This document shows, piece after piece, positions 5,501-53,967 of a DNA stretch of 64,000 nt (position 1 is its first letter; every line of letters starts with the position of its first letter). The DNA lies in assembly GCF_004010195.1 (NCBI RefSeq), contig NC_057751.1:12478908-12542907 (forward strand), in the 5' to 3' direction. The DNA is from Chiloscyllium plagiosum (taxonomy: Eukaryota). Both the position numbers and the translations under genes were made by a program. A model generated the notes under the pieces. That model did not search any database, had not been told where the DNA came from, and worked only from the letters and a program-made list of their open reading frames with translations.

Positions 5501-6263
5501 AGACAGTGGAAGGTTTAAGAAGGGTAATGGTGAAAAAGAACTGCATGTCATCAGTGGTTCTTTTTCCATTTTTCATCCAAATTGCAGAGGACAAAGGGCA
5601 GGTCTTTGGGGAACATCAAAGCAAACAATGCAGGAAAGGCAAGAGAAGGCAGTACAGGTAATTCATTGGTTGTGACTGAATGGAGAAGAGTGTTAGTTGT
5701 CCCAATCAACTAGGCCTCAGTGCAGGATGATCCTTTGGCCAACTGTGTCAGAGGATGCAAACTTGGGGAAGTCTGAGGAGGAATTGTTTCCATTTATCAC
5801 TTGCACCCGATGCCATTTGTGTCTTATTTGCTCAGAACAATAGCGGGGTTGAGACCTGATTAGAAGAATTATGATGGTTTATAGCAAAGAAAAAAGAAAT
5901 CCAGAATCACAAATTTGTCAAGATGCTCCTTCTGTCAGTAAATTTTATCCATGATGATTCTGGATTCCATGCACTGTTCTCATAAAAGAGTGTCTCATTG
6001 ATTTTTTCACCTGCACTGCGATTGCATACAGCTCATGTCACATTGATCCCAATTGTTATAAAGCAAAGGTTGACTGTCTTGGAGAATAGGGTTTTACATT
6101 ATTCAGGGTTTCATAAGTCTCCAGTGATTACATGTTTCTACTTCTTGAAAAATAGCAAGAAACTCTGTTGAAGAGTTCCATGGTCATGCTGGTAAATATT
6201 AAGATGAGTACCTCTTTTTGTTGATGAGGATTGTCTCAGCAGTCTGACAGTGTTGAAAATGAG

Positions 6264-6485
6264 GAGAAAGTGAGGACTGCAGATGCTGGAGATCAGAATT
6301 GAGAGTGTGGTGCTGGAAAAGCACAGCCAGTCAGGCAGCACCTGAGGAGCAGGAGGATCAACATTTTGAGCATAACTCTTCATCCGAAATCAGGTTCACA
6401 AAGTAGAGCTTATGCTCGAAACATCGATTTTCCTGCTTCTTGGATGCTGCCTGACCAGTTGTGCTTTTCCAGCACCACACTCTTG
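6264..6485. mobile_element. Palindromic Penelope-like-derived short element (family B)
   Basis: Starts GAGAAAGTGAGGACTGCAGATGCT; inverted arms of ~85 bp; TSD AGTGTTGAAA(A/C)TGAG at 6249-6263 and 6486-6500. Confidence 0.8.
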
Positions 6486-6519
6486 AGTGTTGAAACTGAG
6501 ACAGCAGAGAGGAGACAGA

Positions 6520-7000
6520 TAGAGAGGAGCAGGAGAAGAGCACACAATGCAAAGACTCAATCCACCATTCAGTATGATCTTGGCTGCTCTTGTGGTTCAA
6601 ATGTATTTTCCTGTCTTGCTCGCCATAATCCTCAATTCCCTGAGAAATCAAAAGTCTCTCTGTCTCGGCCTTAAACATACGCAAACGTGGAGCTTCCACG
6701 AGTCTTGGAATGGAGTTCCAAATGTTCATAACCCTTTCAATGAAGCAGTTATTCATCTCAGTCTTTTATTAGTCCCTTATCCTGCAACTGTGCCCCTTTT
6801 TCTGTATTCCTCTTCCATCCAGAGGAAGCAACATTTCAACATCATATCTAAAATATTCAAGATAATGAAAGGGACAGACAATGAGATGACCTCTCATTCT
6901 TTTCAACCACAGAGAATTAGACCCATTTCAGTCAATCTGTCATCATAGGACAACTCTCTTTGTTGCCTACAATGAAGTATATCTTTTCCTAAAAATAGAG
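6520..7000 (-). mobile_element. Decayed CR1 3' end
   Basis: FIERVMNIWNSIP..MFKAETERLL resembles the CR1 ORF2 C-terminus. Confidence 0.6.
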
Positions 7001-10000
7001 ACTAAATGATGAACTTTGATAAATTTTAGTCTGGTCACCATTCTGTACAAGTATTTGAGGTAACCTGAATTTAATAGTGAAACATCCATTATCATTTTAT
7101 CTGACTGTTATTATGCTTCATCACATGCCAGACTGATGAATAGATATGGAACGCTTGGAGACTTCCAAGCAGCAACATTCTGAGACTGATGTAGTAGAGG
7201 AAATTATTTCAAGCAATTTATCTGTTTGTAACCCCTTAACAGCAGCCTACTATTATTTTCAAGTTTTATAACAACATATTATTTGGTTTAAATCATAAAC
7301 GTCAATAGGACCATTATCATAATCATTGTGTCTTCCTTGCAACTTCACTAACATTTGAAAATTACATATCAAACTAAAAGGCTGACAGACAGAGACACGT
7401 TATTACAAGATGCTGATCTATATTGTTGAACAAGTTGAAATATTCATCCTTTCCCAGAAGTCCAAACAATGTTTTGCTTCATGACATATTGCCCGAACAC
7501 CTCTCTAGTTAGGTTCCTGATTTCTTAAAGAATGATGGATGCGAAATTAGGTTCATTCATAAATCATCATTGTGCAGAACGCAGTTCTCACAATGTGTAA
7601 AGTGGTGGTTCCATATGCAGGGAACTTCAAGGCACGTCCTGACATGAGTCAAGAAGGGTGCGGTCTCTCTATTTGGAAAGACAACTGGAAGCGAACACAT
7701 TTGACATTTCACAGGGGTTACTCACACTGAAACTGGATTTGTACTTACATTCCTTATCATTGGGGATTGATGTGGGAAGGACACAAGAAATTTGCCTGAA
7801 CAAAAATAAAATAAATAATCATTCGGTAGAACAGAATGTGAGTATTACTGATACAAGGCGCATTTTGCCAAAGCTTTTCATCTTGTTCTCAGAAGGACCT
7901 TTTGCAAGGATACACATTCAAGGCAAAACTCAACATCGATACTGAACAAGAGCAAGTGGACTCTCATTGGGAGGTGTGGACGTGTCATTTTGTGGCAACA
8001 TGAAAGATAGACAGCTATTGCTTACACAATGAAAGAAAAAAAGATGCTTTTGCTGTAAATCATTTGCAGGAATATCACAGACACACCCATGAGAAAAATC
8101 AGGGCAAATACATAAAGTAAACTTTATTTACTGAGATTCAACTATTTTTGATGTCCTTTGATTATTAGAGTGGCTTTCTCTCTCTCCACAAACACCTCAC
8201 CACCACCAGCAACAGTAACATAGATTATGCAGCATTTTGAATGGAGAATAATGTTCCAAGGCATTTTATAATTGGAGTCAGACCCAAACAGAAACGATAG
8301 ATATTAAGTCACATTGACCAATCTGTAACCAACTAGTGTCCACCATTTGTTGGTGGTTTATGGCCTTATTGACATTGCTGTCCCTTGATGGCCTGACATC
8401 CAAGTGTATTCATCCAATATCAACTCTGTTACTTTCAGTAAAATAATCTCCCTGTAGCAGCATTTCCAAAAGCTGCGTGACCTCAGTTGCAATTCTGAGA
8501 TGCACCCTGGCTTCCCACAGTGATGCAGTAACAGCACAAAATGCAGACACTCAACAAAAAAACATGAATAATAAGACATGGTTTCTTCTCAAGAAAAATC
8601 ATTTTGGTCAGGTTTTTGGATAAAGACTCTTGCATTTTTGGATCAGATATTTTGAGCACCAAATTGAAAGAAAACTCAGAGCCTCTGGTAATGCATGCAA
8701 ATACCTGTTATTTATGCGTACTTTGACAGAATACATTGACAGCCAGTTTAAACAAATGTGAATCTGTCCTCACATAATGACCATCCACACCAACTTCTGG
8801 CAACGGCTGAAAATGTTTTTTTGGAAACTGGCTAATTTTCCTTCCTATCCCAGGGGAATAAAATGTCCAATTTCAGTGATACTGTTTGCTGCCTCAGGAG
8901 AGACCATGAAGAACAGTAGGAATTGGGACTACATTTTGGGACTTGAATGTGTCCAGCTCAGTGGCTTACATTGAACCAAAGAGGAAGCAAGAAAATATGT
9001 TCCTTGCCTTAATTTCCTGCTTCCTAGTGTATTCCCAGCAGACCCACTGGTACATCAGTGAAATGATTATCCTGGATGTACAGCTTGAGGAGTTGGAATT
9101 CTATGCTCCTCCAGTTCTAGCTACTGCACATCCCTGATTTCCCATGCCCACCTAGGCATCCATATCTTTAATACCTGGGCTTCAGGCTCTTAAATTCTCC
9201 TTTCAAATCTTCCTCTGAGCCTTTGTAAAGCTCCTTTACAGTTTCCTCAACTGTGTTCTTTATCTGTGTGTCAAATCCCATCTGATAGCACTCCTGTGTG
9301 GTGCCCTAATATGTTTTGATGTGTTAAAGGCATTAAACAGATAAAAGCTTTTCTATTTAGATTCTGACATCCAATTATTCCTCTGGTGACTTAAGGCCAC
9401 TCAATAATCAGTAGGAGCAGAACCCACCCCACCCTCCCTGACCCGCCAAATGCAGCTGATTCCCCATCTCTCCCCAGCTCCCCCACCCCTCATCCAACAG
9501 TAGATGAGTCTGCTATATTCTGCACGCAACCCTCGATCAGGGCTGGGACTTCCTTGGTTCGCATCACTTAGGACAAGACTGTGTGGTGTCCTTGCCAACT
9601 AAAGCACTGAGAGGTTATAAGTTGACAATGCAAGATGAACAGATGTGAGACAGACAGTAGAACAAAGGGCAAAGTGAATCTAAAGTACTGCTTAACGGCA
9701 AGAACATTTATCAATTGCTGTTCCAAACTGATTCTTATCAGTATTTCAATGCTTATTATTTGTCCTTCGAAATTATGTTGCACAGGACAGTGAAAATGTT
9801 ATCAATATAAACATGATAAAGTAAATTTGAACAGTTTAGGCACACCCTGGGGCATTCATATATAACTTACTGGAACTAATTCTACTTAAGCACTAAGCTC
9901 AGCATGAGCAGGAGCAAAGCAGCAGACTCTGCATCAACAGTGCCACCTCAGGCCAGTCAATGAGACCTACAGCTAATGTACACAAGAATCTCAAACAGCA

Positions 10001-10933
10001 AAATTATCAAAATGCGTTCAGGCTCTGGGCAATGGAAATGCATTCACTCTTCACTCACACTCTTTCCCAGCCTTCCACCTTGTTTTCTTTGTGGATTAAG
10101 ATCCAACCCATGCATCTGAGCTAGGAACATGACTTGAAGGGAGCAGCTGCTGTAACATTGTCACAATGCAGTTTTCAATTCTGTGCATACAGCAACAGCA
10201 GCCTCCTCAGCCAGTTATCATCTCACGGCGTAAAACTGAAGGGACGTCTTTTGCCACATTCTGACTGCTTTGTTGCAGCTAGCAATGCATATCAATTTTA
10301 AGCCAGAAAGATAACAGAAGAAATCAAATCTCCCAATTTTGGAAAAGTTGCAGGTTCATTTATGAACCATGATTTTTATCTGCAATCCAATGCTAGTTTC
10401 AGTGGACACTTGTTGTGTAACTGTTGCTTTTGAATCTGAAGGCCTTGTCCCTGCTGCTTGCAAATCACATCAGCGGCTCACCCAGAAGGAAAAACCATTA
10501 AGATTGCAAATGATGCCTGCTGGTCCAACTCGTCTCCATAACTTAAATGGACCTCCAGTACACTCATTTACAAGAATGATTGTCTTTTTTATTGCTTTTC
10601 TCTTTGGCTGACTCAAAGACTCAGCTGATTGAACTGGGTCAATTGAACTAGACAGATGAAGAAAAGGCTTCCAACCAGGCCTGCATTGACCAAACGTCCC
10701 AGTTATACAGGGACTGCAAGGCTTTTTCTTAGGAATCCCTGTGTTCTGAGAGTTTCCTCCAGAGCGCAGAAATGTTCAGGTTTTCTCCTCTGCTGAGTCC
10801 CTGCCCATCTCAGGCAATTAACCCTCATGCTGCGCTACACCTGCCAACCAGGCACAGCCCATTTGATGTCTGCTTTCGCTGGGGGAACCTTCTAGGAATT
10901 GACTTTAACAAGACAATAATATTTAAAATTGTA

Positions 10934-11942
10934 GTAACAAAGTCAGACCAGTGGGCCTCATAGAATTTGAGTTCCCTGATTGGGGCTGTTAACCGGAAAC
11001 AATCAGGAAGCCCTGGCTGACAGATATTAACCGGAGTTTCGGGGATTCTGCTCTCTCTATGTAAAGAGTCAGCCAGCTGGAGTGGTGATGGAAGAGGTCA
11101 CATTACAGCAAATACAGTGGTGAGAGAGAAGTCTGTGTACAGCTGTACTTCATGGCTGGAGTCAGCTATTACGAGGGGGCATAGCTTTAAATTAAGGGGT
11201 GGTTGGTATAGGACAGATGTTAGGGGTAGATTCTTTACTCAGCGAGTCGTGAGTTCATGGATTGCCCTGCCAGTAGCAGTGGTGGACTCTCCCTCTTTAT
11301 GGGCATTTAAACGGGCATTGGATAGGCATATGGAGGATAGTGGGTTAGTGTAGGTTAGGTGGGCTTGGATCAGCACAACATCGAGGGCCAAAGGGCCTGT
11401 ACTGCGCTGTATTTTTCTATGTTCTATGATGGAAATTGTGGGCATGGTGTTCAATAAAAAAAGATAACTTTTCCAATTGGTTAGCCTCTAACCATCTCTC
11501 AGAGCAAAGGCACAAGCTCTTCCAAGTCACATCATTATGGTGACAACCCCAAAGAATCTCACTTGAAGTCAGGAGGCAGAAAAGGCCTGGAATTTTTGAC
11601 TCAAGCAAAATCAGTGAGCCAAGCTAACTGGATATGACCATCAGGCCCGGATGGATTGTGCAGTTCTTGAGTTATTGAACACACTGTCTCTCATGGAGAG
11701 CCGAAGCAATATTAAATGATCTTTGGAAATTATGCCATATAATTGTATGTAGGGTGAGTTTTATAAGGTGGTTAGAGTTTAACTTGCGAAGTGACACGTC
11801 AATCAATCATAATTGTCTGTCTGTAGCTTGAATCAATATATTTGGGATAGATAAAAATTCTTGTTAAGTGCAAAACTTGGATTTTTGTCAACCTATGTTT
11901 GAAAGGTATGTAACTTTTAGAAAGTCTTTTAGTTTTGTGACA
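10934..11942 (+). mobile_element. Possible decayed solo LTR, interrupted by the CR1 tail at 11155
   Basis: GTAACA...TGTGACA ends and CAAT/TATA-like motifs near 10980-11030; no clear TSD. Confidence 0.3.
11155..11427 (+). mobile_element. CR1 LINE 3' end
   Basis: TRGHSFKL..RFFTQRVVSSW; TCTATGTTCTATG tail. Confidence 0.8.
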
Positions 11943-12189
11943 ACTCCATCAAAAGCAGGGCTTGATTTTGATTGCATTTCCACAGTGATGTGTAATAGCG
12001 TTTAAAATCAGATAAATAGCTCAGTGTGATCATCCTGCTCTACATTGGCAGCATTTTCTCTTTGTTGCAGATTTTTCACACATTTATTTCTGCAAACCAT
12101 CATGATGCTTGATGCTTTCATTTCCGAACTGTCCACATAATCTTTTATGGAAACGTTCTTTCATTTTACCCCAATCTTCAAAGTGGAGC

Positions 12190-17200: not shown

Positions 17201-18370
17201 TAATTTTATAGACTTCTATCAAGGTTACCATCAGCCTCTGCCCTCAAGAGAAAACAACCCAAGTTTTTCTTGCCTCTCCTTATAGCTTATACCTTCTAAT
17301 CTAAGTAACATCCTTGTAAACTTCTTCTGCAACCTTTCGAAAGCCTCCATATCCTTACTGTAATATGGTGACCAGAACTGAACGCAATACTCTAAGTGTG
17401 GTCTAGCCAAGGTATTATAAACCTGCAACATGACATCTTGACTCATGTACTCAGTTCCCTGGCTAATAAAGGCAAACAGGCCATTTGCCTTCTTTACCAT
17501 CCTACATACTTGCATGGCCACTTTCAGGGAACTCTGGACTCGAACCCCAAGATCTTTCTATACATCAATGCTGTTCAAAGTCCTGCCATTAATTATATGT
17601 TTTTCCTTAACATTTGAACTCTCAAAGAGCAGCACCTTACACTTACCCAGATTAAACTCCGTCTGCCATTTCTCTGCCCATATCTGCAACTGAGCTATAT
17701 CTTGCTGTATCCTTTGACAACCTTCTACACTACCGACAACTCCACTCATCTTTGTATCATCTGCAAACTTACTAACGCACCCATCTGCATTTTCATATAT
17801 ATCACAAACTGTAGAGGACACAATATAGATCCCTGGGGAACATCACTCATCATGGCCTCCAGTCTGAAAACACTCTTCCACCGCTACCCTCTGCTTTCTA
17901 TGGGCAAGCAAACTCTGAATCTATGTGGCCAAGCCAACATGGATCCCATGCATCTTAGTCTTCTGGATGAACCTACCATGACGGACCTTGTCGATAGCCT
18001 TACTAAAATCCATGTAAACATCATCCATAATTCTACCTTCATTGATCACCTGGACAAATTCGATCAATTTGCAAGACATGACCTGTCCTGCACAAAGCCA
18101 TGCTGACTGTCCCTAAGTAGGCTATTTTTTTCAAAATGTGCTTAAATCCGAAACCTAAGAATTTTTTCCCATAGTTTCCCAACCACCGATGTGAGACTCA
18201 CTGGTCTATAGTTTCCTGTATTATTCCAATTTCCCTTCTTGAACAGAGAAACAACATTAGCTACTTGTTGGGACCTCTCTAGTGGCAAATGAGGATACAA
18301 AGATCTTGGTCATGGCCCCAGCAATCTCCTCTCTTGCCTTTCTCAGTAACCTGGGGTAGATACCATCGGG

Positions 18371-18567
18371 GAGAAAGTGAGGACTGCAGGTGCTGGAGAT
18401 CAGAGCTGAAAATGTGTTGCTGGAAAAGCGCAGCAGGTCAGGCAGCATCCAAGCATCCAAGGAGCAGGAGAATCAACGTTTCGGGCATAAGTCTGGCTTA
18501 TGCCCAAAACGTCGATTCTCCCGTTCCTTGGATGCTGCCTGACCTGCTGTGCTTTTCCAGCAACACA
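18371..18567. mobile_element. Palindromic short element (family B) nested in a CR1 LINE
   Basis: Perfect 14-bp TSD TAGATACCATCGGG (18357-18370, 18568-18581); inverted arms; interrupts the CR1 ORF2 remnant at DGIYPRLL. Confidence 0.85.
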
Positions 18568-18746
18568 TAGATACCATCGGGCACTGGGGACTTATCAAAC
18601 TTAATGCTCTTCAAGAGATCCAACACCACTTCTTTATTGATCTCAAAATGCCTGAGCATATTAGTATGCTCCATTCAAATCTCAGTATCCTCCATGTCCT
18701 TCTCCTGGGTGAATACCGATGCAAAATACATTAATGATCTCATCCA

Positions 18747-26245: not shown

Positions 26246-27879
26246 CAGCAGGTCTAATCTGATCTCCTGGATATTTCCAGTGCTTTCTGTTTCACAGTCA
26301 AGAACACAGCATGAACTGACCCTCTTCGCCAAGAGGTCATTGCAAAACAATGGGACTTTGCATCACTGCTGTGAGAGATCAAACAACTGATATCGGGGCA
26401 CTCAAATTCATGGACATCAACACTGTTTCACATTGCAATCTAAAGTTTTAATAAGTCGGGACTAAAAGTAAGATCTGGACAATTTTTATGCTTTGTGAGA
26501 GGAAAAGGTGTTGAAAACATTATCGCAAACATTTCTAAAAATTTCAGATTCCTTTCTCTTTCAGTTGATTTGTGGAACATTTGAGAGGCAGTTTTCTGGT
26601 ATGATCTTTGTAGTGGAAAGTTGTGCAGACCATTTTTAAGAATTCCAGATACATTATGAGTGACATTCTGACAAGCCTTTCAAATATTAAGAGCACATCT
26701 TTGTGCAGCATGGTGCTCCATACCACAGAAGAATGTTGGTACAATAGACAGGGGACAGTACAGGTTCACAAGAATGCTGAAATTAAAACAGAAAATGGAG
26801 GAAACAGTCAGGTCAGACAGCATCTGTGGAGAAGCAGAGTGAAATTTTCCATCAGAACTGGAATATTGCCTGGCACAAGGAAATACTGCCAGGATCCAAA
26901 CTTCTGCCAGCACTCATGAATGAAGTCTGGCCACCTGGATGAATCATCCTAAAAGCAACTGGCACCATTGGATATGTACAGCGAGGAGTCGACACCTTCA
27001 GGACTGGAGCCAAGAATATAAAGGAAAATAATAACTACATCGGGATATATTCAACTCAATTCATCACCAACATTTGAAGGGATAAATGTGAGAGCAGTAC
27101 CAAACAATGCAAAAGGAAATTCGTGCAAACATTCTTCAGCCAAATAGAGTTTAAAATGTGCGACCACACAGGACTTGAATGGTACAGATGGATTTTAGGG
27201 GTGTCGAGACAGCATGAGGGAGAAATGATGAGAACGATATGTGAATTAGCTGAAATGAAGAGAGGAGAAGGAGAAGGTATTGACTAGATGAGTCAAGTAA
27301 CCTTTTTCTGTGGAAGATACTCTGTGTAACTTCATGTGGTATTGTCTCATCATCACTGGGAAGGCATCCTTTCAATGTGTCAAACATGATTCAGAGGCGA
27401 TGTATATTATTTCCTGACTGACCCCAATAAGTTGGTGTCAGATTGTCACCCAGGTCTAGTGGTTGTACTTTGAAGGATTCTTTATTTTGATTCCTTATTC
27501 AATTTGTTTTCCAACACTGGCAACATTCAGATTGGCACTTGCATTTCCATTGTTGTAACCTTGCATTCCAAGATAGTCAAAGACTGAATGCAAGAGCCTT
27601 TCCCACACACAAAAAAAGGGTCATTTTTCTTCCTTGGCAGCACTATCAGAGGACTGGAACAGTCTTGCTGGATGACCGCAGAACAAAACATAATGGAAGT
27701 GTTGGAAAGAACATTGGAGTGTGTTCTTAAAATATAAAGATGTCACTGTGGAGTAAGAGTGTGAATGTCTCAGTCTATGTTGTACCTGACAATTGAGAGG
27801 GAGAGGGTACAATCGGAAGTGACAATATATCTGTTGAATAAAGGGACCTATGGAGCTATGAGGGAGGAGCTGGCCAAAG

Positions 27880-29775
27880 TTAGAACAACAGAGGATTACT
27901 AAGAAGGAAATACGCAGAGAAAAAATGAGGTACGAAGGTAAACTCTCCAAAAATATAAAGGAGGATAGTAAAAGCTTTTTTAGGTATGTGAAAGGTAAAA
28001 AAATGGTTAAGACTAAAATTGGGCCCTCTAAGACAGAAACAGGGGAATATATTATGGGGAACAAAGAAATGGCAGGAGAATTGAATTGGTACTTCAGATC
28101 TGTGTTCACTGGGGAAGACACAAGCAATCTCCCTGAGGTAACGGTGGCTGAAGGACTTGAACTTAAAGGAATTTATATTTGCCAGGAATTGGTGTTGGAG
28201 ATACTGTTAGGTCTGAAGATTGATATGTCCCCAGGGCCTGATGGTCTACATCCCAGGGTACTGAAGGAGGTGGCTCGAGAAATCGTGGATGCGTTGGTGA
28301 TTATTTTTCAGAGTTCGATAGATTCGCAATCAGTTCTTGCGGATTGGAGGGTGGCTAGTGTTGTACCACTTTTTAAGAAAGGTGGCAGAGAGAAAGCAGG
28401 AAATTATAGACCAGTTAGTCTGATCTCAGTGGTGCGAAAGATGCTGGAGTCTATTATAAAGGATGAAATTAAGACACATCTGTATAGTGGTAACAGGATA
28501 GGTCAGAGTCAGCATGGATTTATGAAGGGGAAATCATGCATGACTAATCTTCTGGAATTTTTTTGAGGATATAACTCTGAAGATGGATGAGGGAGATCCA
28601 GTAGATGTAGTGTAACTGGACTTTCAGAAAGCTTTTGATAAAGTCCCACATAGGAGGTTAGTGAGCAAAAGTAGGGTGCATGGTATTGGGGGCAAAGTAC
28701 TAACTTGGATTGAAAGTTGGTTGGCTGAAAGGAAACAAAGAATAGTGATAAACGGATCCATTTCGGAATGGCAGGCAGTGACCAGTCGGGTACCGCAGGG
28801 ATCAGTGCTGGGACCGCAGCTTTTTACAATATATGTTAATGATATAGAAGATGGTAATAATATTAGCAAATTTGCTGATGATACTAAGCAGGATGGCAGG
28901 GTGAAATGTGAGGAGAATGTTAGGAGATTACAGGGTGATCTGGACAGGTTAGGTGAGTGGTCAGATGCATGGCAGATGCAGTTTAATGTGGATAAATGTA
29001 TGGTTATCCACTTTGGTGGCAAGAACAGGAAGGCAGATTACTACCTAATTGGAATCAATTTAGGTCAAGGGGCAGTACAAAGAGATCTGGGTGTTCTTGT
29101 ACACCAGTCAATGAAGGTAAGCATGCAAGTACTGCAGGTAGTGAAAAAGGCTAATAGCATGCTGGCCTTCATAACAAGAGGGATTGAGTATAGAAGCAAA
29201 GAGGTTCTTTTGCAGCTGTACAGGGCCCTGGTGAAACCACACCTGGAGTACTGTGTGCAGTTCTGGTCTCCAAATTTGAGGAAAGACATTCTGGCTATTG
29301 AGGGAGTGTAGCGTAGGTTCACGAGGTCAATTCCTGAAAGACTGGAGCGACTGGGCTTGTATACCCTTGAGTTTAGAAGACTGAGAAGGGATCTGATTTA
29401 GAGATATAAGATTATTAAAGGATTGGACACTCTGGAGGCAGGAAACATGTTTCCGCTGATGGGTGAGTGCTGAACCAGAGGACACAGCTTAAAAATACAG
29501 GGTAGACCATTTAGGACAGAGATGAGGAGAAACTTCTTCACTCAGAGAGTGGTGGCTGTGTGGAATCTCTGCACCAGAGGGCAGTGGAGGCCCAGACTCT
29601 GGATTCATTTAAGAAAGAGTTGGATAGAGCTCTCAAGGGTAGTGGAATCAAGGGTTATGGAGATAAGGCAGGAACAGGATACTGATTAAGGATGATCAGC
29701 CATGATCATATTTAATGGTGGTGCAGGCTCGAAGGGCAGAATGGCCTACTCCTGCACCTATTGTCTATTGTCTAT
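27880..29775 (+). mobile_element. 5'-truncated CR1 LINE, RT region with few disablements
   Basis: ORFs 27925-28566 and 28661-29311 contain SPGPDGLHPRVLKE, NYRPVSL, QHGFMKGKSC, VPQGSVLGP, FADDTK and LEYCVQFWSP; (CTATTGT)n tail. Confidence 0.93.
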
Positions 29776-32700: not shown

Positions 32701-35258
32701 CACTCCATAGACTCAACTTTCTCCTACCTCATTTAGTACCCTTTGGTGAACAAAATCTCCATGTTCTGAGTCGAAAAATCTGTCAAGATATTAGCAAAGC
32801 AGAGAGATCTAACAAACTGCACAGATTATCTTCTGCATCAGCCTAATCAGATAACATTGATACCAACAGAGATTTGGATGTTTCAGTCCATTTTCTTCAG
32901 CTGAAATGTGATCATTTTCTTTCTAATCGTAAGCTATGCAATTTTGTTGAGTTCAAGCTAGTATGAATATTTGACAGTTTTCTTATTAGTTCTAACGACA
33001 CTTTTTCTGTTTCATAATTACTTACTTTTCCTAACAGGGCTCATTCTGTAGCATGAAAGGTGAAATCTACCCAATCAAATTGCAGCAAAGCAAGCCTCTG
33101 AACTGCAGATAAGAAAATAAAATTTCAGTGGAATATAATTTCCATGAGCCACAAGGACCACAATTAGCTTGACTGCATATGAACATACCTGCTCATCAGT
33201 CATGCTTCTTTCACTCTCCAATACCATTTCCCCCTCCACACTCCACAATGACACCCACATACACATATGCTCAGAAAAGGTGCATGGGTACACCATCTTC
33301 TCTAAATCACGCATGTGCTCACTTCAAATAATACTGCTGTTTCTTCATCATCGTTGGGTCAAAGTCCTTGCATGTTGCTAGGATCCCAGCTGATAGCAAT
33401 AATGGATAAATGAGATCCCAGATCAAAAGCTGCTTGATGGATAGCATGTTTTGTTTTTTTTTTGTTTACTATTAAAGTCAGTCGCTGAGGACATTCACAG
33501 GAGACTGTAAATATACTTTTAACAAAAAAGAAAAGCAATTCATTGCATAAAACAAAATCACAAACTTCATGAGACTCAATAGTATAAATTGGACTGATCT
33601 CATTCTAAATATCAGAATGAAATATTCATGCTTTCTATCCCTGCAATTTCCTTAAAGATGCTCAAATCTCAGTAATGAATTGCTAAAACTTTCCACTCAA
33701 TTCATACACTGTCATAAGTTTCCTTTCAGCAATTACTCCATGTTCACAATCTTATTTTCTTCAGTTAATGCTTGTCCTCAAGACTCTCCAAAACCAATCT
33801 GCAAACTCACTATTATGTAAAATGGATTCCTCAGCTTATGTCTTCCACAGATTTGACCTCTTGGAAACTGATAAAACAACATCTGTGCTGTAATAACTGT
33901 CCCCTTTTCACATTTGTTTCTGACCCCCTTCCATCTCTCATAAAACCTAATTCAGCAAACATTGTAGCAATTGTCACTCCTGGTGACTTGCTGGTCATTT
34001 AGCTAAAGTTATTTGACATATTGTAAACATTGTTTTCAAATGGCCTTCTGAGTTTTCATAAAATAACAAGTCAGACCACAGAAAACTAAAATTCATTATC
34101 CCTCCGCTTTAGTATTCACTTTCCCAAATAACAATAATGTGTTTTGAGCCATCATTATGACCTAGAATGCAGCCATTCAAAAATAAATCTCATATTCTGA
34201 AGGGCAATATTTCCCACCAATACCATTTTTTTTGGTACATGAACCTTGGAGGTCGATGTGTGGCATTGAAACCTCAAGTCAATGCATTGGAACAACTGCA
34301 TGACCATGCAGCTTAGAGGGCACATTGCTTCCCGCATCCTAAGAATTGATAAATAAATAACTAAACCAACATGCCTTGTTGCATCCCTTCACATTCAACA
34401 TGTGCTAAGGGTCAAAGAGGCTTGCGTTCTGATTTCCCCAATCCCTCTTGCTCCACTGCTGCCCTCCCCATTCTCACAACTTTCCACTCAGTCACGGGCA
34501 CTGGTTCTATCACGATACATTACTCGAGGACTAGTGAACCAGAGCAAGTTCCTGAAGGACATTGTTGTGGTTGCCCAGAGATTTCTACAGGAAGCAGAAG
34601 CTGTGAGAGTGTGAAGGAGATCTGCATCAAAAACTACAAATATCAGACACAGGAAGGGATGACAAAAGAGAAAAGATTAACAGTACAATGGACAGGAGGA
34701 ACATTAGATCACCGTCGGGAATTTATAAAGCTATTGAAGCAATGATAAATCTTTCAAAATGGATAAGAATTGCCAATAGCTTCTTTCATGATCCTCAACC
34801 ATCCCTCATCTAGAAGGCAACGGAAATGGAACTTGCCTCAAGTTTGCAAGCTCCAAGCCAACCTTTCAGTGCTCCTAATTCCCATTACTGCTTCAGGGAG
34901 CAAGGACATTCTCTCAGTAGTTGTCCAGGTGTCAGTTTGTCTCTGTTGGGAGCATAATTGTGTCTGAATCATCTCTTGTGAGTTTAAACACAACATCAAA
35001 AATTGAGTGTGATTCCCTGTTCTGATGGTGTATTGCAATCTCAGAGGCATTAACTGAGGCCCTGCTCCCTGTTTGGATCATTGGTAGTAATCCTGTGTCA
35101 TGATGTGAAGAAAAACATGAGATCTCCTGGAGCCTTGCTCATTTACCTTTCTTTTGTTCATTTATATTCCTTTTCATTCATTGCTGCCTGTTGTCCTTGA
35201 CGGTTTAAAATAGCTGCTGGGTTTATCTTGTAACAATAGGGATTGAATGTCAAACCAG

Positions 35259-35381
35259 GAGAAAGTGAGGACTGCAGATGCTGGAGATCAGAGTCGAGAG
35301 TGTAGTCCTGGAAAAGCACAGCAGGTCAGGCAGCATCCGAGGAGCAGGAGAATCGATGTTTCGGGCATAAGCCCTTCACTC
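35259..35381. mobile_element. Single-arm copy of family B element
   Basis: Same GAGAAAGTGAGGACTGCAG start; TSD AATGTCAAAC(C/T)AG at 35246-35258 and 35385-35397. Confidence 0.8.
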
Positions 35382-36069
35382 TTAAATGTCAAACTAGTCA
35401 AACTAGTCATGAAGCGCTTTGAAATGCCCCCGCAATTTGTGCCCAAAAGAAGTTCCACGCATATTTCCCTCAAATACCTGCTATAATGCTCACTGAGAGC
35501 TCGCGTTCAAAAACAATTCTTAGAAATGGAAAGATTCAAAGCACCTGCTCACATTCCAATCTTGGATGTCTCCAGATTGCTGGCAACATGGCAAGATCTA
35601 TTCACACCATGCTGCTGCATGTAAGGAGAGCTGCACCAAGACACTAATAGGTAAAATCCTGGTCTGGATCTTCTATGAAATGGCCTTTGCAAGGAAAGAC
35701 AGTTGAGTCAATAGTGCAGGCTGCACCCAAGCAGATAAAGTAGGGCATGTTCATTCACCTCAGTGCTCCAGGCAAAAAACACAACCACAGTCCCTAAATA
35801 TGTGCTTATTCACTGGAGATTTAAAAAGAATAAACACCCTTTTACCTGTCAGAAATATATCTTCATTGATTCCTGCAGACCAAAACTGTAAAAAAAATTC
35901 TGAAATTCACTCCTCAAAGTGGTAAAGGCAAGATGGAACTCATTTGAAAAGTATTTCAAAATCGTTGACACCGGACAAATTCTGACACTAACTTGGTGAA
36001 ATAAAAATGCATCTGAGAAAAGGTTACTCGCAGATTTGTTTGAGTCCAATAAAGGTAGATGCAACTTAC

Positions 36070-36150
36070 CAAATTCACTTGCACAGAGGTGATCCAGAAT
36101 AATGTCTGTATTCATCTGATTGTCACACGGTGGACACACTTCTGATGCTG
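36070..36150 (-). CDS. SFRP1: SFRP1-like coding exon 2 (81 nt, start of netrin/NTR module)
   Basis: Acceptor TTCTTTCCAG| and donor TTTG|GTAAGT; phase 1-1 is compatible with exon 1. Encodes AASEVCPPCDNQMNTDIILDHLCASEF, matching the SFRP1 motif VCPPCDN...HLCASEF. Confidence 0.92.
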
Positions 36151-36780
36151 CTGGAAAGAAGCAAACCAATGTTTTTGTCAGTCAGAACAGATGGGGTGAG
36201 AAACAACAGGAACTCTTTAGTACACAGAGGCATTCATACAATAAAATCATCTGCATTTATATATCTCATTATAAGACATCCATTTTCCAATGTGATTAGG
36301 AGCAGTATTTTTGGATAAAGGTAACAAACAATCAAAAAAAGCATGTTCAAAAAGAAATGGTTCTACTTCACAGGGAGTCAGTTCTGAAGCAGTATAACAT
36401 CCAGGAGATTTTCAATACAAACTGAAAGACGACATTTGTCATTATTAAGCAGAGCTCAAGTTGTCCTATTACTTGGAATTTTCTTTTACCTCATTCCAAT
36501 TTCCTAAAGGACCCCACTCCCTGGAACTCTGAATGTAAGCACCTCACTAAATTTCTGGCTGTCCTTGGCAGCCAAGATGTCATGGGTCAGCCAGCTTTTT
36601 GAACACAAGGACTGCTCAGATCAGGGCGTTCTCTGCTCACCTGACTTGAACTTCTCAACAAGGATCACTGCCTAAACTTTGGGGAAGCATTAGTGTCCTG
36701 GTAATGTCGTTTGAGTAATAATTAATGAGCCTCAGGCTCATGTTCTGGAGAATGGGTTTGAATCCCACCAAGGCACATGG

Positions 36781-37508
36781 TGAATTTTGAACTTAACTAA
36801 AAGCAATCAAGGGTAAAAAGCTCATCTAATAATATCCATGAAATCTCTGTTGCTTGTTGTCAAAAATCATTGAATTCACTGATCCCCTGTCAGAGGATGA
36901 AATCTAGCTTCCCTATCTCGTCTGGCCCACATGTGATGCCAGACGCACAGCAATGTAGTTGATTGTTAAGTGCCCTCTGGGAATGAAAAATGGGCATCAA
37001 TCTTGGCATATCCAGCCATTCCACATCCCATGAACAAATTGAAACAAAACAGCCCAAAGGCAATTATGGTGACTTTCCCCGCATCACTTATGAAGGAGAA
37101 TAGTGAACACATGTAGATGATGAGAGTGAGGATTCTCCTGGTGTTGAATTTTGAACTTAACTAAAAACAATCAAGGATAAAAAGCTCATCTAATAATATC
37201 CATGAAATCTCTGTTGCTTGTTGTAAAAAATCATTGAATTCACTGATCCCCTGTCAGAGGATGAAATCTAGCTTCCCTACCTCGTCTGGCCCACATGTGA
37301 TGCCAGACGCACAGCAATGTAGTTGTTTGTTAAGTGCCCTCTGGGAATGAAAAATGGGCATCAATCTTGGCATATCCAGCCATTCCACATCCCATGAACA
37401 AATTGAAACAAAACAGCCCAAAGGCAATTATGGTGACTTTCCCCGCATCACTTATGAAGGAGAATAGTGAACACATGTAGATGATGAGAGTGAGGATTCT
37501 CCTGGTGT
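36781..37508 (+). repeat. Tandem duplication, 2 x 364 bp
   Basis: 36781-37144 and 37145-37508 differ at about five positions. Confidence 0.95.
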
Positions 37509-38644
37509 TTATGTTTCAGGACAATATGGTGATGCATTCATCCTGCAGTACAATGGAAAGGCTTGCACTTAGTGAGCAGTGTTCATGACCCTGGGACATC
37601 TCAAAGTACTTGGCAGCCAGTGAGATACAATTGAAGAGTAATCACCATTGTAATGTTGGAGCCACACAAACACAATGATTTTTGGGTCTTTGCATTTGTT
37701 GGAAATTCAATCTAGACAGTTTTAAGTCTTTATAATACAGTTTAGATCTGAGCCTTCCAGTTCATAAACATAGCTGAGATGCTAACCCACCACCTGAGAG
37801 TGTTTTAACCACCCATCCCTGGTCCTACCCAAGGAAAACCTGGAATTTTAGTCTGGAACCATTTTCCTGGCTCACATTCATTGTTTTTGTTTATTAACCC
37901 CTCTGTCTGCTTGGTCATATTAAAGTGATCCTTTGAAAATTATCATGAAGAATTTTCCTCATCATACGTAGGAGAAGGGCAAAGAAAAACAATATAATTC
38001 TGGGGAAAATTGAAAACATTGAAAAAAGAAAGCCAAAGAGAAAATGTTTTTCATCAGTTGATAGAAATAACAAAATCGCCTAAGGGTAGCATTGGTGGGG
38101 ATGTGGGGAATTAAAACAAATGTTGAAGCAAGTTTTGCTTTCTTCAGTGTGAAATTGTCCATGACAAGTAAAATAAACAGCAGCATGCAGTGAGAGGCTG
38201 GGTCTACTGAATCAGCATGTGATATAAATAGCTCTGAGCGGTGTCTGTCAGAAGAACTGCAATCCTGCACTTCAGCACAATCCATCTTTCACTACACACC
38301 AGTTGATGGAGCCATTACAGAGCCTTGTATGAACCACCTGTGTATACAACTTGTCGTACCAGTCAAACAGAGTGGTTCCACTGAGTCTGATCCATGTCTG
38401 CATGCTGGGCTCTCAGCTTCACCCAGTTTGCCTGTCTGTTATTTGTAAGGTAATGCGGTTCAGTGGGTTAGCACTCTGAGTCAGAAGACTGATTGGATTC
38501 AAGTTGCAAAACATACAGAAAGCTGACACTGCTTTGCAGTAGTGCAGGAGAATTCCAGTGTTGGATAAATGATTTTGCATTAATGTTAAACCAAGGCTCC
38601 ATCTTCCTTTTGAAGCACAGCAGGTGAACTTTCCTGATGTCAAA

Positions 38645-38860
38645 GAATCATGGAATCTTAGAATTAATGGTGGCCACAAAAGGTGGCCATTTTGTCTGCA
38701 CAGGCTCCTGAAAGAGCTACCCAGCCAGTCCCACTCTCCAGCCCTATCTCCGTTGCCCTCTAACTTCATCACTTTCAAATGGACATCTAGCTCCCTTTTT
38801 AAATCTCCTATGGAATTTGCTTCCATCACTCTCCCAGGCAATGTATTCCAATCCTTGACA
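38645..38860 (-). mobile_element. CR1 3' end nested in a DeuSINE-like element
   Basis: LPGRVMEANSIGDLKRELDVHLK C-terminal remnant. Confidence 0.65.
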
Positions 38861-40993: not shown

Positions 40994-41129
40994 AATCCTG
41001 AAGGGTCACTGGACCAAAATGTTAACTCTGATCTCTCTCCACAGATGCTGTCACACCTGCTGAGATTTTCCAGCAATTTCTGTTTTTGTTTCAAATTTCC
41101 ATTATCTGCAGTTCTTCCAGTTTTTATTT
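40994..41129 (+). mobile_element. Older related short element (family C) with decayed hammerhead-like head
   Basis: CTGA-AGGGTC-ACTG-GACC-AAAATGTTAACT, then a CAGATGCTG..ACCTGCTG..TTTTCCAGCA..ATCTGCAGT tail resembling family B; 10/12 TSD (40982-40993, 41130-41141). Confidence 0.55.
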
Positions 41130-41689
41130 GTGCAGCTTTGGTGCTGGATAATCAATATCTGAAGCTACAGATCAGATTGGTCACTTGACGTCAACTCCCC
41201 AGTATCTACTATCTGACATATTCATTCACAGCTCAGATGGTGGCTTTGTGGTGCATTCTAGCATATGTCACTTATGTTGGATGACATTAATGTATAGAAT
41301 AGTTCTGACATTGTTTACCATGAATGTAATTTTAAAAATTATGATACAATTGTTATGTCAATTTTTTGAGCATAATTTAAACTCATATTTAATTTCATTT
41401 CATGAACGGTATTTCTACTTTCATATATTTCAAATCCTTTGGCCATTAAGATGTCTTGATATGTAAATACTATCCCCATTTCGCACCCACTCACTTACAT
41501 TATGGCACATTTGCTCATTATGGCAATCCATCTCCATTCCACAGCTTATTAAATGTCATCGAAATGAAACTGTTTTGTATGTTACAACAAACAGATGGTC
41601 ACCATTGGATTATGTCGATACACACTATGTCTGAAACAGTGCATGAGTGCTAATGTTTTCAAATGCACAATTCCCCATTTATTCTCTCC

Positions 41690-43203
41690 CAATGCACCTA
41701 TGAAGCTGTGGAGTGAGGCAAGGGAGGAAATAACAGGGGCACAGGCCATGATTTTCAATTCCTCTCTGACCACAGAAGAGATGCCAGAGGACTGGAGGAC
41801 AACCAATGTGGTGCTGACATTTAGGAAGGCAGCAAAGAGAAGAGTAGGAAACTACAGGCCAGTCAGTCTAACTTCAGTGATGGGGAAACTCTTGGAAGCA
41901 ATTCTGAGGGACAGAATTCATCTGCATGTAAAGAGAGAGGGATTAATCAGGAGCAGTCAGCATATTTTTGTTCAGGGGAGATTATGTTTTCCAACTTGAT
42001 TGAATTTTTCAAAGAGGTAACCAGGTGTGTAGATGAAGGCAATGCAAACTTAGATGTCAGCAAGGCTTTTGATAAGGTCCCACATGGGAGACTAAGAGCA
42101 AAGGTAAGAGCCTAGGGGATCAAAGGAAATTTGGTGAATTGGATCAGATTTGGTTGAGGCGGTTGGCAGGTATCAGAGGATTATGGTCAAAGTCTGTTTT
42201 TGTGACTGGAACCCTGTGTCCAGTGGGGTGCTGCAGAAATCAGAGTAGTGTCCCTTGCTGTTTGTGGTATGTATAAATCATTTAGACTTGACTGTGGGAG
42301 GCCTGATCAGTAACTTTGTGAATGATGCAAAAATTGGTTGGGAACAATAAGGAGGATAACTTTAATTTACTGGATATGGTCAGATGAGCTGATCAGTAGC
42401 AAATAAGATTCAATCTGGATAAATGAGAGGAGCTGCACTTGGGCAGGACAAACAAGATATGATAGACATGACACAGTTGAACCCTGGGCAGCACGAAGAA
42501 TCAGAGGGACTTTGCTGTTTGTGTACACTTGTCCTTTAGGTAGTAGAATACATGGATAAAGTAGTGAATAAGGGACATGGGAAACTGGCCTTTACAAGCT
42601 GAGGCATAGAGTTTAAGAGCATGCAGGTTGCGTTGGAACTGTGTAAAATATTAGTTAGGCCACAGCTAAACTATTGTTTGCAGTTCTAGAATCCACATTT
42701 TTTGAGAATGATGGAAATGAAAAGGGTGGAGAGAAGATTTACCAGGATGTATCTGGTCTCAAGAGTTTTAATTATAAAGAAAGATTGGATATACGGTGGT
42801 TGTTTTCCTTAGAGCAGAGACCTGAGGGAGGACATGATTGTATTGTTTAAAATTATGAGGGACATAGCTAGCCTTGACAGGAAGGAACTTTTCCCCTTGA
42901 GATAGAAATCAATGACCGGGGGCATGCATTTTAGATAAGGGACAGGAGGCTGAGAGAGGAAATGAAGCCTTTCACTCAAAGGCTAGTAGATGTTTGGAAC
43001 TCATTGCCTGTATAAGTGCAGTAGGGGCAGAAACCCTTGTAACATTTAAGAGGCATTTAGATGTGCATTTGCGATGCCAAGGTTTGCAAAGCGAGGAGAC
43101 ATGTGCTGGAAAATGAAATGAGCACAGTTAGTTGCTTGTTTTTGACCAGTTACAAACTTGATTGACCGAAGGGCCTTTTTCTGAGCGGCAGATCACTATG
43201 ACC
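41690..43203 (+). mobile_element. Decayed CR1 LINE ORF2/3' end
   Basis: PEDWRTTNVV..GNYRPVSLTSVMGKLLE; CR1-like 3' end. Confidence 0.85.
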
Positions 43204-43631
43204 TTTGAGTGAGGAAGATTGTAGGTCAAACAAAGGAATAAATTTTCAAGATAAAATCCTTGAGTTGAATCACTCTGCCTGCTACTCTGCTTCCTGAATC
43301 CATTATAACAGGAACTGAAAACTTATTATTTTAGTAGCTGCTTCAGAGATGCTTCATAACACTCCTGAACAAGTTTGTTTGAACATTTCTGTGGATTCAG
43401 ACAGGACAGAAGGAGGCCCTCTGACCAATTGTGCTCGGTCAATTTCTTCTCTTCATAGCCAGCTTGCAATGCTGTAAAAGGCAACAGTCTGCTCACTGAA
43501 TTGCATTAATGGCAGCTGTAGAACTTAGACAGAGTTTTTGCAACTTTAAGGTTTCTTTAAATGTATTTTTTTCATCTCCCCCAACTGGTCAGCATGACTT
43601 GATTCTGTGGAGGATTTCTGAAGCTCCATTG

Positions 43632-43923
43632 CTGCTTGAACCACAGCATAGGAGAAAGTGCGGACTGCAGATGCTGAGGATCAGAGTTGAGAGGATGGTG
43701 ATGGAAAAGCACAGAAGGTCAGGCAGCATCTGAGGAACAGGAACATAGAACATAGAACATAGAACAATACAGCACAGAACAGGCCCTTCGGCCCACGATG
43801 TTGTGCCGAACTCTGCTTGAACCACAGCATAGGAGAAAGTGCGGACTGCAGATGCTGCGGATCAGAGTCGAGAGGATGGTGATGGAAAAGCACAGAAGGT
43901 CAGGCAGCATCTGAGGAGCAGGA
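43632..43923 (+). repeat. 111-bp direct duplication flanking a 70-bp CR1 tail insertion
   Basis: 43632-43742 = 43813-43923 (3 differences); 43743-43812 is a minus-strand CR1 3' tail with (ACATAGA)3. Confidence 0.9.
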
Positions 43924-44050
43924 GAATCGATTTTTCGGGCATAAGCCCTTCATCAGCCCTTCCTGATGTGCTTATGCCTGAAATGTTGATTCTCCTGCTT
44001 CTTGGATGCTGCCTGATCTGCTGTGCTTTTCCAGCACTACACTCTCGACT
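43833..44050. mobile_element. Palindromic short element (family B)
   Basis: Inverted arms of ~90 bp; minus strand 43925-43956 reads CTGATGAAGGGCTTATGCCCGAAAAATCGATT; degenerate TSD GAAC(C/T)ACA(G/A)CAT. Confidence 0.8.
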
Positions 44051-44199
44051 TAGAACTACAACATTTAAAAATTGTGTTTCTTCACTTTTTCTCAAGGCAT
44101 CCTCAGCAGTTTGAAACATTCACCCTGGTTAGAAACTCTCAAGCCCACACATAGTTGACAGGTCTCTAGCTACCAGAAACTGTACGGGACTAACCAGAT

Positions 44200-44810
44200 A
44201 ACTACAGTGACTGCAAGAGCAGGTGAGAAGCTAAGAATCTGTAGTGAGTAACTCACCTTCTGACTCCTAAAGCCCATCCACCATTGATAAGGCACAAGTC
44301 AGGAGTGTGATGGAATACTCCATACTTCCCTGGCAGGTGCAACTCCAAAAACACTCAAGAAGCTCAACACCATCCAGGACAAAGCAACCTGCATGATGGG
44401 TACCCCATTACCACCTTCAGCTTTTACTCCCATCACCACTGATGCACAATTACAGTAGTGTATACCCATTGCAAATGCAGTGCAACCAGTCACCAAGGCT
44501 CCTGTGGCAGGACCTCCCAAAGCCATGACCTCTACAACCTATAACATACAAGGGCAGCAGTTGCTTGGGAACATCAGCAATTGCAAGTTCCCCTCCAAGG
44601 CACACAACATCCTGATTTGGTGCAATATTGGTACTCCTTAGCTGTCATTGGATCTGAATGCTGGAACTTGCATCCTGACAGCACAGTAAGTATACCTACT
44701 CACCCTTGACTGTTACAGTCCAAGATTCTCCATTAAAATGTAGGATGGGCAACAAATGCTCATCAATTTATCAATGCTGCCCACATCCCATGAATAATTT
44801 TTTTTAAATC
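44200..44810 (+). mobile_element. LINE 3' fragment (L2/CR1 group)
   Basis: KAQVRSVMEYS remnant; 3' tail GGATGGGCAACAAATGCT..CCCACATCCCATGAA shared with SINE tails at ~970, ~30220, ~37000 and ~60690. Confidence 0.65.
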
Positions 44811-45928
44811 CCAGAAACTGTTCAACAGCCCTCATCGTCCAACACTCCTCGCCTCCCCACTTGCCAAAATTACGTCCCCAATTTTGACTCTGATGTTGTA
44901 TGATGACTGAGGCATTAAAATAGCATCACATTGGGAAACAGTTTGTGAATTACTGATAAATGACTGCCAACCTTTTTAAATATTTAAGCAGCCCTTCTAC
45001 CTCCTCCAGTTCCTTGACTGAATTCCATTAATCATGGCAGTGAGAGGCCAGAAACGATTGGGTTCAGGTTTGCAATTTCAAGAATGTTAACATCTGACTT
45101 AACCCAATTCATCTGTTTTGGGTGCTAAGATTCAGTAGGTAGTTTCCTATCTGAGTACACATTTCAATGTTTTATTACGAATGCTGATACATTTACTTCT
45201 CTGTTTGATGACCTGTCAGGTTTATCACCTCCGATGCTATGTCATTAAGGGTGTGATGCTTATTCCACACATCATCCTACTTTAAGGCTTTCTAATCAGA
45301 CCTTCAGTGAGCTGATGAGAAGCTGATAAACATAAATTGACAAGAGTGATGCTCAGAGCTGATCTTAACATCACTCTTCTGACATGCGCTGTGAGGTTAA
45401 AAGTTCAGGAGAGAAGAAATTTGTGCAGTGTAACAGGAAAAGAGCATGGAAAAATAATTTGGTGTTTGTCAATCACACATTCTTCAATACTTGTGCACAA
45501 ATAACACTCCTTGTCTAAGGGAATTACATTGTCTAAATCAGCAGTAGGATCTTGCAACTATTTCGAAGTAGATATGAAACATCATCAAAACTAATTTGGA
45601 TAGTTTATGCCAGAGCAGACGGCACAGAAACTTCACAGTCTCCATAACAGCACAAGGAACTCAACTGGTGGGAAACAACTGGTGATAGAATCATCATCTT
45701 CCTCATCTATTCTGATAATATTTTTGTGAGGGCAAATGCAGTGAACTATGGCTTGCAATGTTTTAACAAGAAGTCAATCCGAGAAGGTGATGACTTCTGC
45801 TTGGGCTAAGCAACGTTCATTTATGCTGTGTCTCGAATATCATCAACAATGCAACAAGGATTTCTCTCCTTAGCCTTCAGCTCAGATGGATTTATCCCCC
45901 AACAGTCTTTGCCTTATAATCTTTCTCC

Positions 45929-46174
45929 TAAAAGAAAGTGAGGACTGCAGATGCTAGAAAGCAGAGTCGAGAGTATGGTGCTGGAAAAGCACAGCAGATC
46001 AGGCAGTATCCAAGGAGCAGTAGAATCAACTTTTCAGGCACAAGCCCTTCGTCAGGACTTCATCAAGCCCATGATCAAGCCATTCCTGATGAAGAGCTTA
46101 TGCCCAAGACATTGATTTTCCTGCTCCTTGGATGCTGCCTGATCTGCTGTACTTTTCCAGCACCACACTTTCGA
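45929..46174. mobile_element. Palindromic short element (family B)
   Basis: Perfect 16-bp TSD CTTATAATCTTTCTCC (45913-45928, 46175-46190); inverted arms; CTGATGAAGAGCTTATGCCC at 46086. Confidence 0.85.
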
Positions 46175-48119
46175 CTTATAATCTTTCTCCCTCCGTTTCC
46201 CTCACCCTGACCTCCTCTTTCATCATCTTTTGTCATAATCATTTTGTGACAGCAAATGTAGTGCACTGTGTCTTGCAATGTTTTAACAAGAAGCCAATTT
46301 GAATAATACGAATGACTGAATTCATTCTGTACATCTCTATGATTCTGAGGTTTGAGATGATGCACCTAACTAGATACTCTCTGTCAATAGTGAATACAAG
46401 GCATAGCAGCGCTGTCTCTTGCATGCATCCATGTCATTGACCCAACCCAAACCCACCACACCAGACTGACTTGTCAATGCTGAAACATTAAGAACAAGCG
46501 TTCAGTCCCTGAGACTAGTTTGACCATTCATCCAGACCTTACTTGATTTGTTCCATTGTCTCAGCATTACTTCATATCCCAATAATCTTTCTTGTACAAA
46601 AATCTACCTCAGTCTCGAAAGCTCCAACAGTCCCAGAATCCACATTCTTTCAAGGGACGTGTTCCAGGTTTCCACTACCTTGAAAACACCTTCCATACTT
46701 AGCTTGTATATTTGTCATATTTTCATGTATCCTTTCAATTACACTCTGTTTCCCTATTCCACAAATAAACAACCCAGAGTCAGGAAATTCAACTATGAAA
46801 ATAGACTCAAGGCAAGATTCTTAATTTGAAGATCAGCTTGCCTTTTGCATTTTTTTAACTTCCATTCACTCCAAGCTTCCACATCTCTGCAAATGTTTTT
46901 ATTTCAAACCACACACTGTCATTGAGAAGTGAGACTGTTTTCTATACAGTACCTTAAGGCAGGTCAGTTGATGAACAGAACATCCACTCATTGCACTTTG
47001 ATTAAAACCAGAACCTTATTACTTTTGTGGTATGGCTGTAAGACTCTGCCTTCTCTACCAAAATTGAACATAATTATTCCCCCTTCCCCCAATGTACTTT
47101 ATAGGTAATTTAGAAATCACAAAAAGGAATATGCAAAATATTCATTGCTGAGAAAGAAACACAAGGAAATCATAGATTACAAATGTACATGTGTCTGTAT
47201 GTCCTTGTGTAAGATTGATCTTTCTGTGTGCATATGTATGTTATCTACATTCATTGCTATATAAGTGAATGGATATGTCTTTATAAGTACCTGTATACAT
47301 TTTGCTAATGAATATACAAGTGTATATTCATCAGCATGTATGTGAACACATATTTATGCCTAATGCATAAACTGTGCTGTGCTGGTCAAATCAAGAGTGA
47401 CACATAACCAAATTAACAAGGCTAGTAAGCAAAAGAAATACAATTCATTCTCCTTGACCCGTTTAAAAATTGCATTCACTGCCTGCAAACAGACAAACTT
47501 CAACTTCAACATTTTAAAGATTTTGAAATACAGATTCTTAACCCAAAATTTATTGAGACTCCTCATTGATTTCTTCAAAAAAGCTTTTGTTGTAGCTGAC
47601 CCTGTTTGTGACTTTGCACTGAACTGAACAAGTCTGCAAATGGAAGATGACAGTTCCTCTGTTGTCATATTTTTAACCATGATCAGTTTCTTGTTGGGAA
47701 ACTGCTGCTGGTGTCCAGCGAAGGAGGGAGAACTCATTTAATGTTTCAAGCAGCTTGTACCAGGATTTAAGCCAACTGGATTGGCTCACATCATCTGGAA
47801 ATAAGTAACAAATGTCAAATAATTGGATCACTGCCTTTGCCATTTCCCATAACCGCAACTCGGGATTTTACATGGCACAAACAGCCATTTCCATGGTATC
47901 AATTGAAAAACCCAATAGCTCAGTTGTCAATTGTTCAATTCATTGGGGAGCTATAACTTACAGCTCCCCAATGTAAGTTATAGCTTACATTTTCTATTCA
48001 TTGTCTGATCTCAACTGGAATGGAGCTCCAGTTGGTCTCAGTACCTTGTGCAGTTGACAGCTGAAGAATTGAAACAGATTTCCCCTGTTCTCGCACCTCC
48101 GCACCTCCAATATGACGTG

Positions 48120-48735: not shown

Positions 48736-48738
48736 NNN
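48736..48738. other. Assembly gap (NNN)
   Basis: Three N bases separate unrelated sequences (CR1 on the left, Penelope-like on the right). Confidence 0.95.
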
Positions 48739-48864: not shown

Positions 48865-48886
48865 TCATCTGCAAACTTACTAAGGA

Positions 48887-53900: not shown

Positions 53901-53967
53901 GTTATCTCCCTCTCCTGAAGTTTCTAAGTGTGTTACATTTTCACGGTGGGCCGAGAGCAAATATTAC

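Follow-up and report, generated by a model that had tools for sequence, protein, structure and literature searches.

A 64-kb stretch of the genome of Chiloscyllium plagiosum (NCBI RefSeq assembly GCF_004010195.1, contig NC_057751.1, positions 12,478,908 to 12,542,907 of the forward strand; hereafter the window) contains five short related repeats, most of which fold back on themselves and which together hold the remains of a hammerhead ribozyme. Which kind of element leaves such hairpins, and how is each hairpin made? We found that the five repeats are genuine insertions, now decayed, of a shark repeat that is very abundant and carries a minimal hammerhead motif. They are probably dead-on-arrival stumps of the 3' terminal repeat (pseudo-long terminal repeat, pLTR) of an endonuclease-bearing Penelope-like element (PLE), whose enzyme, order of priming and template we infer from described PLEs. 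Judged by this analogy, every testable feature agrees with an insertion of the PLE kind. An earlier note on this DNA had proposed minimal Penelope terminal-repeat retro-insertions; the anatomy, the long and variable target-site duplications (TSDs), the minimal hammerhead and the inversion bear this out. No Penelope open reading frame (ORF) linked to the arms was found in the window frames scanned or in the protein searches. The copies, at 6264, 18371, 35259, 43833 and 45931, all lie where that note had placed them:

6249..6500, minus strand: copy 1, a fold-back with TSDs at 6249-6263 and 6486-6500, composed of a long arm at about 6264-6392 (element sense on the minus strand), about 10 nt of filler and a short arm at about 6403-6485 (plus strand).
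18357..18581, minus strand: copy 2, with an exact 14-nt TSD at 18357-18370 and 18568-18581.
35246..35397, minus strand: copy 3, a long arm only (35259 to about 35378), with a 13-nt TSD containing one mismatch.
43833..44053, minus strand: copy 4, a fold-back with a degenerate TSD only.
45913..46190, minus strand: copy 5, with an exact 16-nt TSD at 45913-45928 and 46175-46190.
43924..43956, minus strand: the best-preserved minimal hammerhead motif, with core box, 4-bp helix II, GAAA box and UH site.

When the five long arms were combined into a profile and the window was searched with it, five long arms and, on the opposite strand, four short arms were recovered. As had been claimed, four of the five copies form long stems, for which the minimum free energy lies between -127 and -150 kcal/mol; their z scores range from -12.5 to -18.4 (100 shuffles each) versus -1.2 for copy 35259, in which the second arm is absent and the truncation point falls inside the hammerhead core. 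The outer end of the long arm is fixed across copies, and in the four fold-back copies the short arms terminate 37, 43, 31 and 34 nt before it (a few bases at these ends are ambiguous with the TSD), which matches an earlier estimate of about 30-40 nt. The arms are only ~75-130 nt long, include no ORF and diverge by 5-16% from the pooled majority sequence. Copy 18371 carries the tail of another subfamily and an 8-nt duplication within its long arm. The long arm lies on the left in all five copies; the chance of a common orientation is about 0.06.

The TSDs measure 15 nt with one mismatch (6264), 14 nt exact (18371), 13 nt with one mismatch (35259) and 16 nt exact (45931), and among 5000 random site pairs the chance of a duplication of at least 13 nt was 0.0006. 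Copy 43833 shows only a gapped 16-nt likeness (p ~0.02). A TSD around the whole unit is significant in four of the five copies, and the claim that every copy has one holds to that extent.

The second line of evidence is the hammerhead itself. Read in element sense, the pooled arms contain, besides the core and GAAA boxes, a helix II of 4 bp, a palindrome of four bases and a UH site, and this motif matches the >80% consensus of PLE minimal hammerheads in a part of the supplement to PMC4209133. A descriptor of the core had two matches in the window against 0.015 expected (~130 times chance), so that the pooled core proposed in the earlier note is well founded, as is its remark that no single copy is intact: a minimal type I hammerhead is present at the level of the family and in no individual copy. 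The two matches are the long arms of 43833 and 45931 (two of nine arms). Both are without the helix-III palindrome, and no arm has the palindrome and the core together. Decay has taken different courses: four arms are cut within the core; the long arm of copy 43833 keeps the catalytic boxes and helix II and its short-arm core has a deletion; the full CUGANGA box is present on both arms in copy 45931 only, where the short arm is without the GAAA box. At place 43932 three DNA runs have the palindrome's G (helix III) as their majority base, with 81-84% of depth, and a two-sided change of one helix II pair occurs in the short arm of 6264 and in an arm of a related family at 41012. The ATG of the core box, in the arms that retain it, reaches a stop after 16 codons.

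The proposal of a ribozyme motif on each strand proved overstated. Each strand has a single sense motif, few arms pass the descriptor, and the predicted pairing probability of helix II was 0.0 in all eight strand/copy transcripts of the fold-backs; among isolated arms it exceeded 0.89 in two, was 0.2-0.3 in a third and below 0.1 in a fourth. The hammerhead remnants are thus predicted to be passengers, locked in the long hairpin. No Rfam family matched the window at gathering score, and between 43780 and 46250 only sub-threshold, hairpin-like matches were obtained, none of them to a hammerhead family. In a weak test, on a single fragmented poly(A) library from single cells, read ends did not pile up at the cleavage site. 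Joints starting at 46114, right after the predicted cleavage site (4, 11 and 5 contigs), were considered as evidence of cleavage and rejected, since several mismatches immediately precede that base in the window copy.

The abundance of the family was assessed over 43790-46400 in three DNA runs that represent three organisms (A, B and C). Depth on the arms was in the millions versus 7-21 on unique flank, a ratio of ~10^5 that is to be read as an order of magnitude and not as a copy number. Copy 45931 stands at the same site in all three organisms, with contigs from B and C crossing both flanks and one contig, from B, covering its junction; since it is shared at the same site, this insertion predates the split of the organisms. 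Among the loose ends there are at least three variants of the tail, and one of them, found as a loose end in 156 RNA reads, matches copy 18371. In all four runs the loose ends at 43956, behind the core, make up the largest class listed; in the DNA runs (three of the four) they agree at 0.36-0.38, versus 0.38 for random flanks, and the loose-end consensus of every run shows a weak shared continuation past the core. Direct arm-to-arm joints were found in 33 (X1), 11 (X5) and 25 (X12) contigs for the best row, the intervening letters not being known. RNA reads cover both strands of the arms, and only 7 of 3229 are at least 99% alike to them; these reads derive from other copies. A protein search gave two matches among 551 candidates in which arm fragments stand inside host-gene models, of C. 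plagiosum and Hemiscyllium ocellatum, which, from these translated sequences, points to a carpet-shark repeat. The two proteins (P0002 and P0006, PDZ-domain and lysyl-oxidase-like models) contain the translated fragment either by exonisation or by an error of gene prediction.

Further matches came from the same long-arm profile. One, at 43652, is an incomplete duplicate, and the others, at 41012 and 26809, are weaker arms that belong to a related family:

43632..43742, minus strand: partial duplicate of copy 4, 111 nt with 3 mismatches, comprising the left flank and the outer long arm.
40996..41114, plus strand: single decayed arm of the related family, from profile and folding, with a two-sided pair change in helix II.
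26780..26857, minus strand: second decayed fragment of the related family, from profile and folding.

The 111-nt duplicates around copy 43833 are separated by a 70-nt tail with a 7-nt repeat, of the long interspersed element (LINE) type (window 43632-43923), and a duplication of this length is unusual for so short an insertion. The arms at 41012-41114 and 26809-26857 appear to represent a second hammerhead-bearing family, in which helix II and the tail differ.

How the hairpin arises can be read from its inner junctions. All four are distinct, as are the ends of the short arms, in keeping with the variable centre described earlier. The junction of 18371 is a near-perfect palindrome inside helix II, those of 43833 and 45931 are re-copied snippets of the arm, and that of 6264 is a short filler. 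Because all four differ, the hairpin was likely assembled anew at each insertion event and not copied from a master. In three of the four copies both arms have a non-CpG variant in common, and the mean sharing of variants was 0.75 within copies versus 0.28 over 32 between-copy pairs, which hints at one source per insertion. The second arm would come either from a second RNA or from fold-back priming.

The ends of the arms that correspond to the RNA 5' end, read by eye, lie in all nine cases between about -8 and +9 of the first core base (~18 nt). Such clustering is compatible with a short template, with a start just upstream in a 5' pLTR, or with a stop of reverse transcriptase (RT) at helix II. 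Since all nine arms run beyond the predicted cleavage site, the RNA that was copied had likely not been cleaved. The short arms finish within an AC-rich stretch that belongs to a predicted stem-loop closed by the tail.

By analogy with described PLEs, the insertions could have formed as follows: (i) a GIY-YIG nuclease would make staggered nicks 13-16 nt apart, giving the TSD; (ii) RT would start inside the RNA, which is likely uncleaved, at one of two sites, the long arm and its tail of 31-43 nt coming from the distal start and the short arm from the proximal one, in the AC-rich loop; (iii) synthesis would halt at or near the hammerhead; and (iv) end-joining or fold-back priming would connect the two ends head to head, with a new junction each time.

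Several observations weigh against this origin from a PLE terminal repeat. Random truncation of an element of 3 kb would scatter the 5' ends more widely than is seen in the nine arms, and the window contains no longer copy of the family. Stem I pairs at three of four places only. Among the contig joints listed, no empty site was seen. The TSDs of 13-16 nt are longer than the 8-10 nt reported for rotifer PLEs in a section of PMC3846280. No RT or GIY-YIG ORF linked to the arms was found among the 42 of 54 long window frames that were scanned. Three RT matches were obtained among these frames, at 27862-29308 and 41568-41996, and two translated pieces have motifs that we take to be CR1-like. Protein searches with the arm translations gave no matches in one case and no linked Penelope ORF in any; one matched a tandem-repeat protein and the PDZ gene model with the arm fragment, and another the two host-gene models named above.

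The wider search for relatives was likewise negative within its scope. The window has neither a partial tandem pLTR-ORF-pLTR organisation nor a tandem array of the arm unit. Scans for exact patterns gave nothing in viral contigs or metagenomes, and a 34-mer pattern nothing in prokaryote genomes, collections that are poorly suited to shark repeats; a 19-mer pattern hit 38 prokaryote loci, which were rejected as chance (best 23 bits versus 68-133 for true arms). No account of a shark family was met in the literature by title or start of abstract, which does not imply novelty since repeat databases lay outside the search, and three motif strings were not found in literature text. Four shark and ray terms found no example in the searchable files of the PMC4209133 supplement; one further file, not searchable, may list shark families.

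The clustered 5' ends raise a less likely alternative, namely that the template was a dedicated non-coding RNA of ~135 nt, reaching from a point shortly upstream of the hammerhead to where the tail ends. It would be a parasite comparable to a short interspersed element (SINE) and would depend on a Penelope protein for mobilisation in trans, the fold-back still being made per insertion. The RNA 5' ends of all nine arms fall within ~18 nt, the loose ends at 43956, the largest listed class, agree no better than random flanks in the DNA runs, the arms have ~10^5 times the depth of unique flank, and there are several tail variants. Moreover, trans-acting pLTRs and non-autonomous PLE derivatives have been described, at least in parts of PMC8557442, PMC3846280 and bioRxiv 10.64898/2026.07.22.740005. 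However, the same clustering would also be expected if RT started in the 5' pLTR of a full-length transcript beginning just upstream, or if it stalled at helix II, and the weak shared continuation past the core in four runs suggests that longer copies likely exist. In its fullest form, which we regard as similarly doubtful, the alternative describes a ~135-nt parasite with ~10^5 copies in carpet-shark genomes, whose RNA has its start at the minimal hammerhead and, at every insertion, serves twice as template, from two internal starts, the identical cDNA ends being joined at the self-complementary helix II. The earlier suggestion of an independent non-autonomous family could hold in this sense of a linear template RNA; it finds no support for the fold-back as a unit, given the four different junctions.

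It is very unlikely that the fold-back itself moves as a unit, with master hairpin loci that carry a working ribozyme on both strands as the source of the copies. Its overall layout and size are common to four of the five copies, and each DNA run has 24-36 contigs with one recurrent junction type (intervening letters not known), but the diversity of the junctions and of the short-arm ends, together with the single-armed copy, largely refutes such copying. In addition, helix II is not predicted to pair in any of the eight fold-back transcripts, in contrast to two isolated arms, and each strand has a single sense motif although dimers are reported as necessary in a part of PMC4209133. A miniature inverted-repeat transposable element (MITE) or foldback DNA transposon with an accidental likeness to a hammerhead would also be short, non-coding, high-copy and rich in long inverted repeats, yet it is highly improbable, as the earlier note had argued from long variable TSDs and unequal ends: the repeats fall 31-43 nt short of one end, the TSDs vary in length (13-16 nt) and sequence, one copy is single-armed and the descriptor matches far exceed chance.

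Three other features of the window should be mentioned. A tandem duplication at 36781-37509 consists of two copies of a 364-nt unit that are 98% alike. Repeat fragments form a large inverted pair at 48125-50928, with arms of 242 nt (87%) and 174 nt (80%) about 1.6-2.5 kb apart. On the minus strand at 53936-54547, a Frizzled cysteine-rich domain (Pfam Fz) follows a signal-peptide-like stretch, and this region is presumably the first exon of an SFRP-like gene.

The repeats studied here are most likely ordinary by-products of a retroelement class that has already been described. Their value lies in their number, because in a family this abundant two-site priming, self-priming by fold-back and the clustering of 5' ends could be counted in one genome. 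If the dedicated short RNA template were true, the family would represent a SINE-like Penelope partner of unusual abundance, and the ~135-nt parasite would amount to a large natural archive of the way in which the inverted repeats and tails of Penelope form. The hairpins could also be mis-annotated as microRNA precursors, as the weak Rfam matches to microRNAs indicate.

Non-LTR retrozymes, reported in one chondrichthyan genome (bioRxiv 10.64898/2026.07.22.740005), are likewise non-coding, related to pLTRs and equipped with a type I hammerhead; they form head-to-tail tandem units with complete ribozymes, whereas our copies are single or head to head with truncated ribozymes. This class was excluded by the lack of a tandem array and of any complete motif in the window. 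The minimal hammerheads of metazoan PLEs (PMC4209133) have the same CUGANGAH box, the same G-C first pair of helix II, a short helix I, and GAAA followed by a palindrome and UH. They are reported to need dimers and occur in thousands per genome, mostly in lone truncated elements, some of them as pairs on opposite strands 100-700 bp apart; the shark family differs in that helix II has 4 bp only and all copies are decayed.

The protein of the green anole PLE Poseidon PAc nicks and extends both strands, its main substrate is uncleaved RNA, and the tail corresponds to the interval separating two internal RT starts, one of which lies in an AC-rich stem-loop (PMC11167929). The shark repeats resemble PAc in the position of the hammerhead, ~80-125 nt upstream of two inferred RT starts, in their AC-rich stem-loop at the proximal start, in copying from RNA that would be uncleaved and in the absence of an RNA-end pile-up at the cleavage site. 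PAc differs in having a known ORF that begins at helix II, whereas here the ATG of the core box soon meets a stop and no enzyme is in hand.

The insertion units of endonuclease-bearing PLEs are 5'-truncated, often with an adjacent inverted 5'-truncated copy and a 30-40-bp tail at one end (PMC8557442). Those of rotifers have palindromes at their junctions, for which fold-back priming has been discussed (PMC3846280), and both papers state that the formation of the inverted repeats and tails is unresolved. The units described here differ from them in having arms of ~75-130 nt without an ORF. They share with them the head-to-head inverted truncated copy, in four of the five copies, as well as the extension at one end (31-43 nt), the TSD and, in one copy, the palindromic junction.

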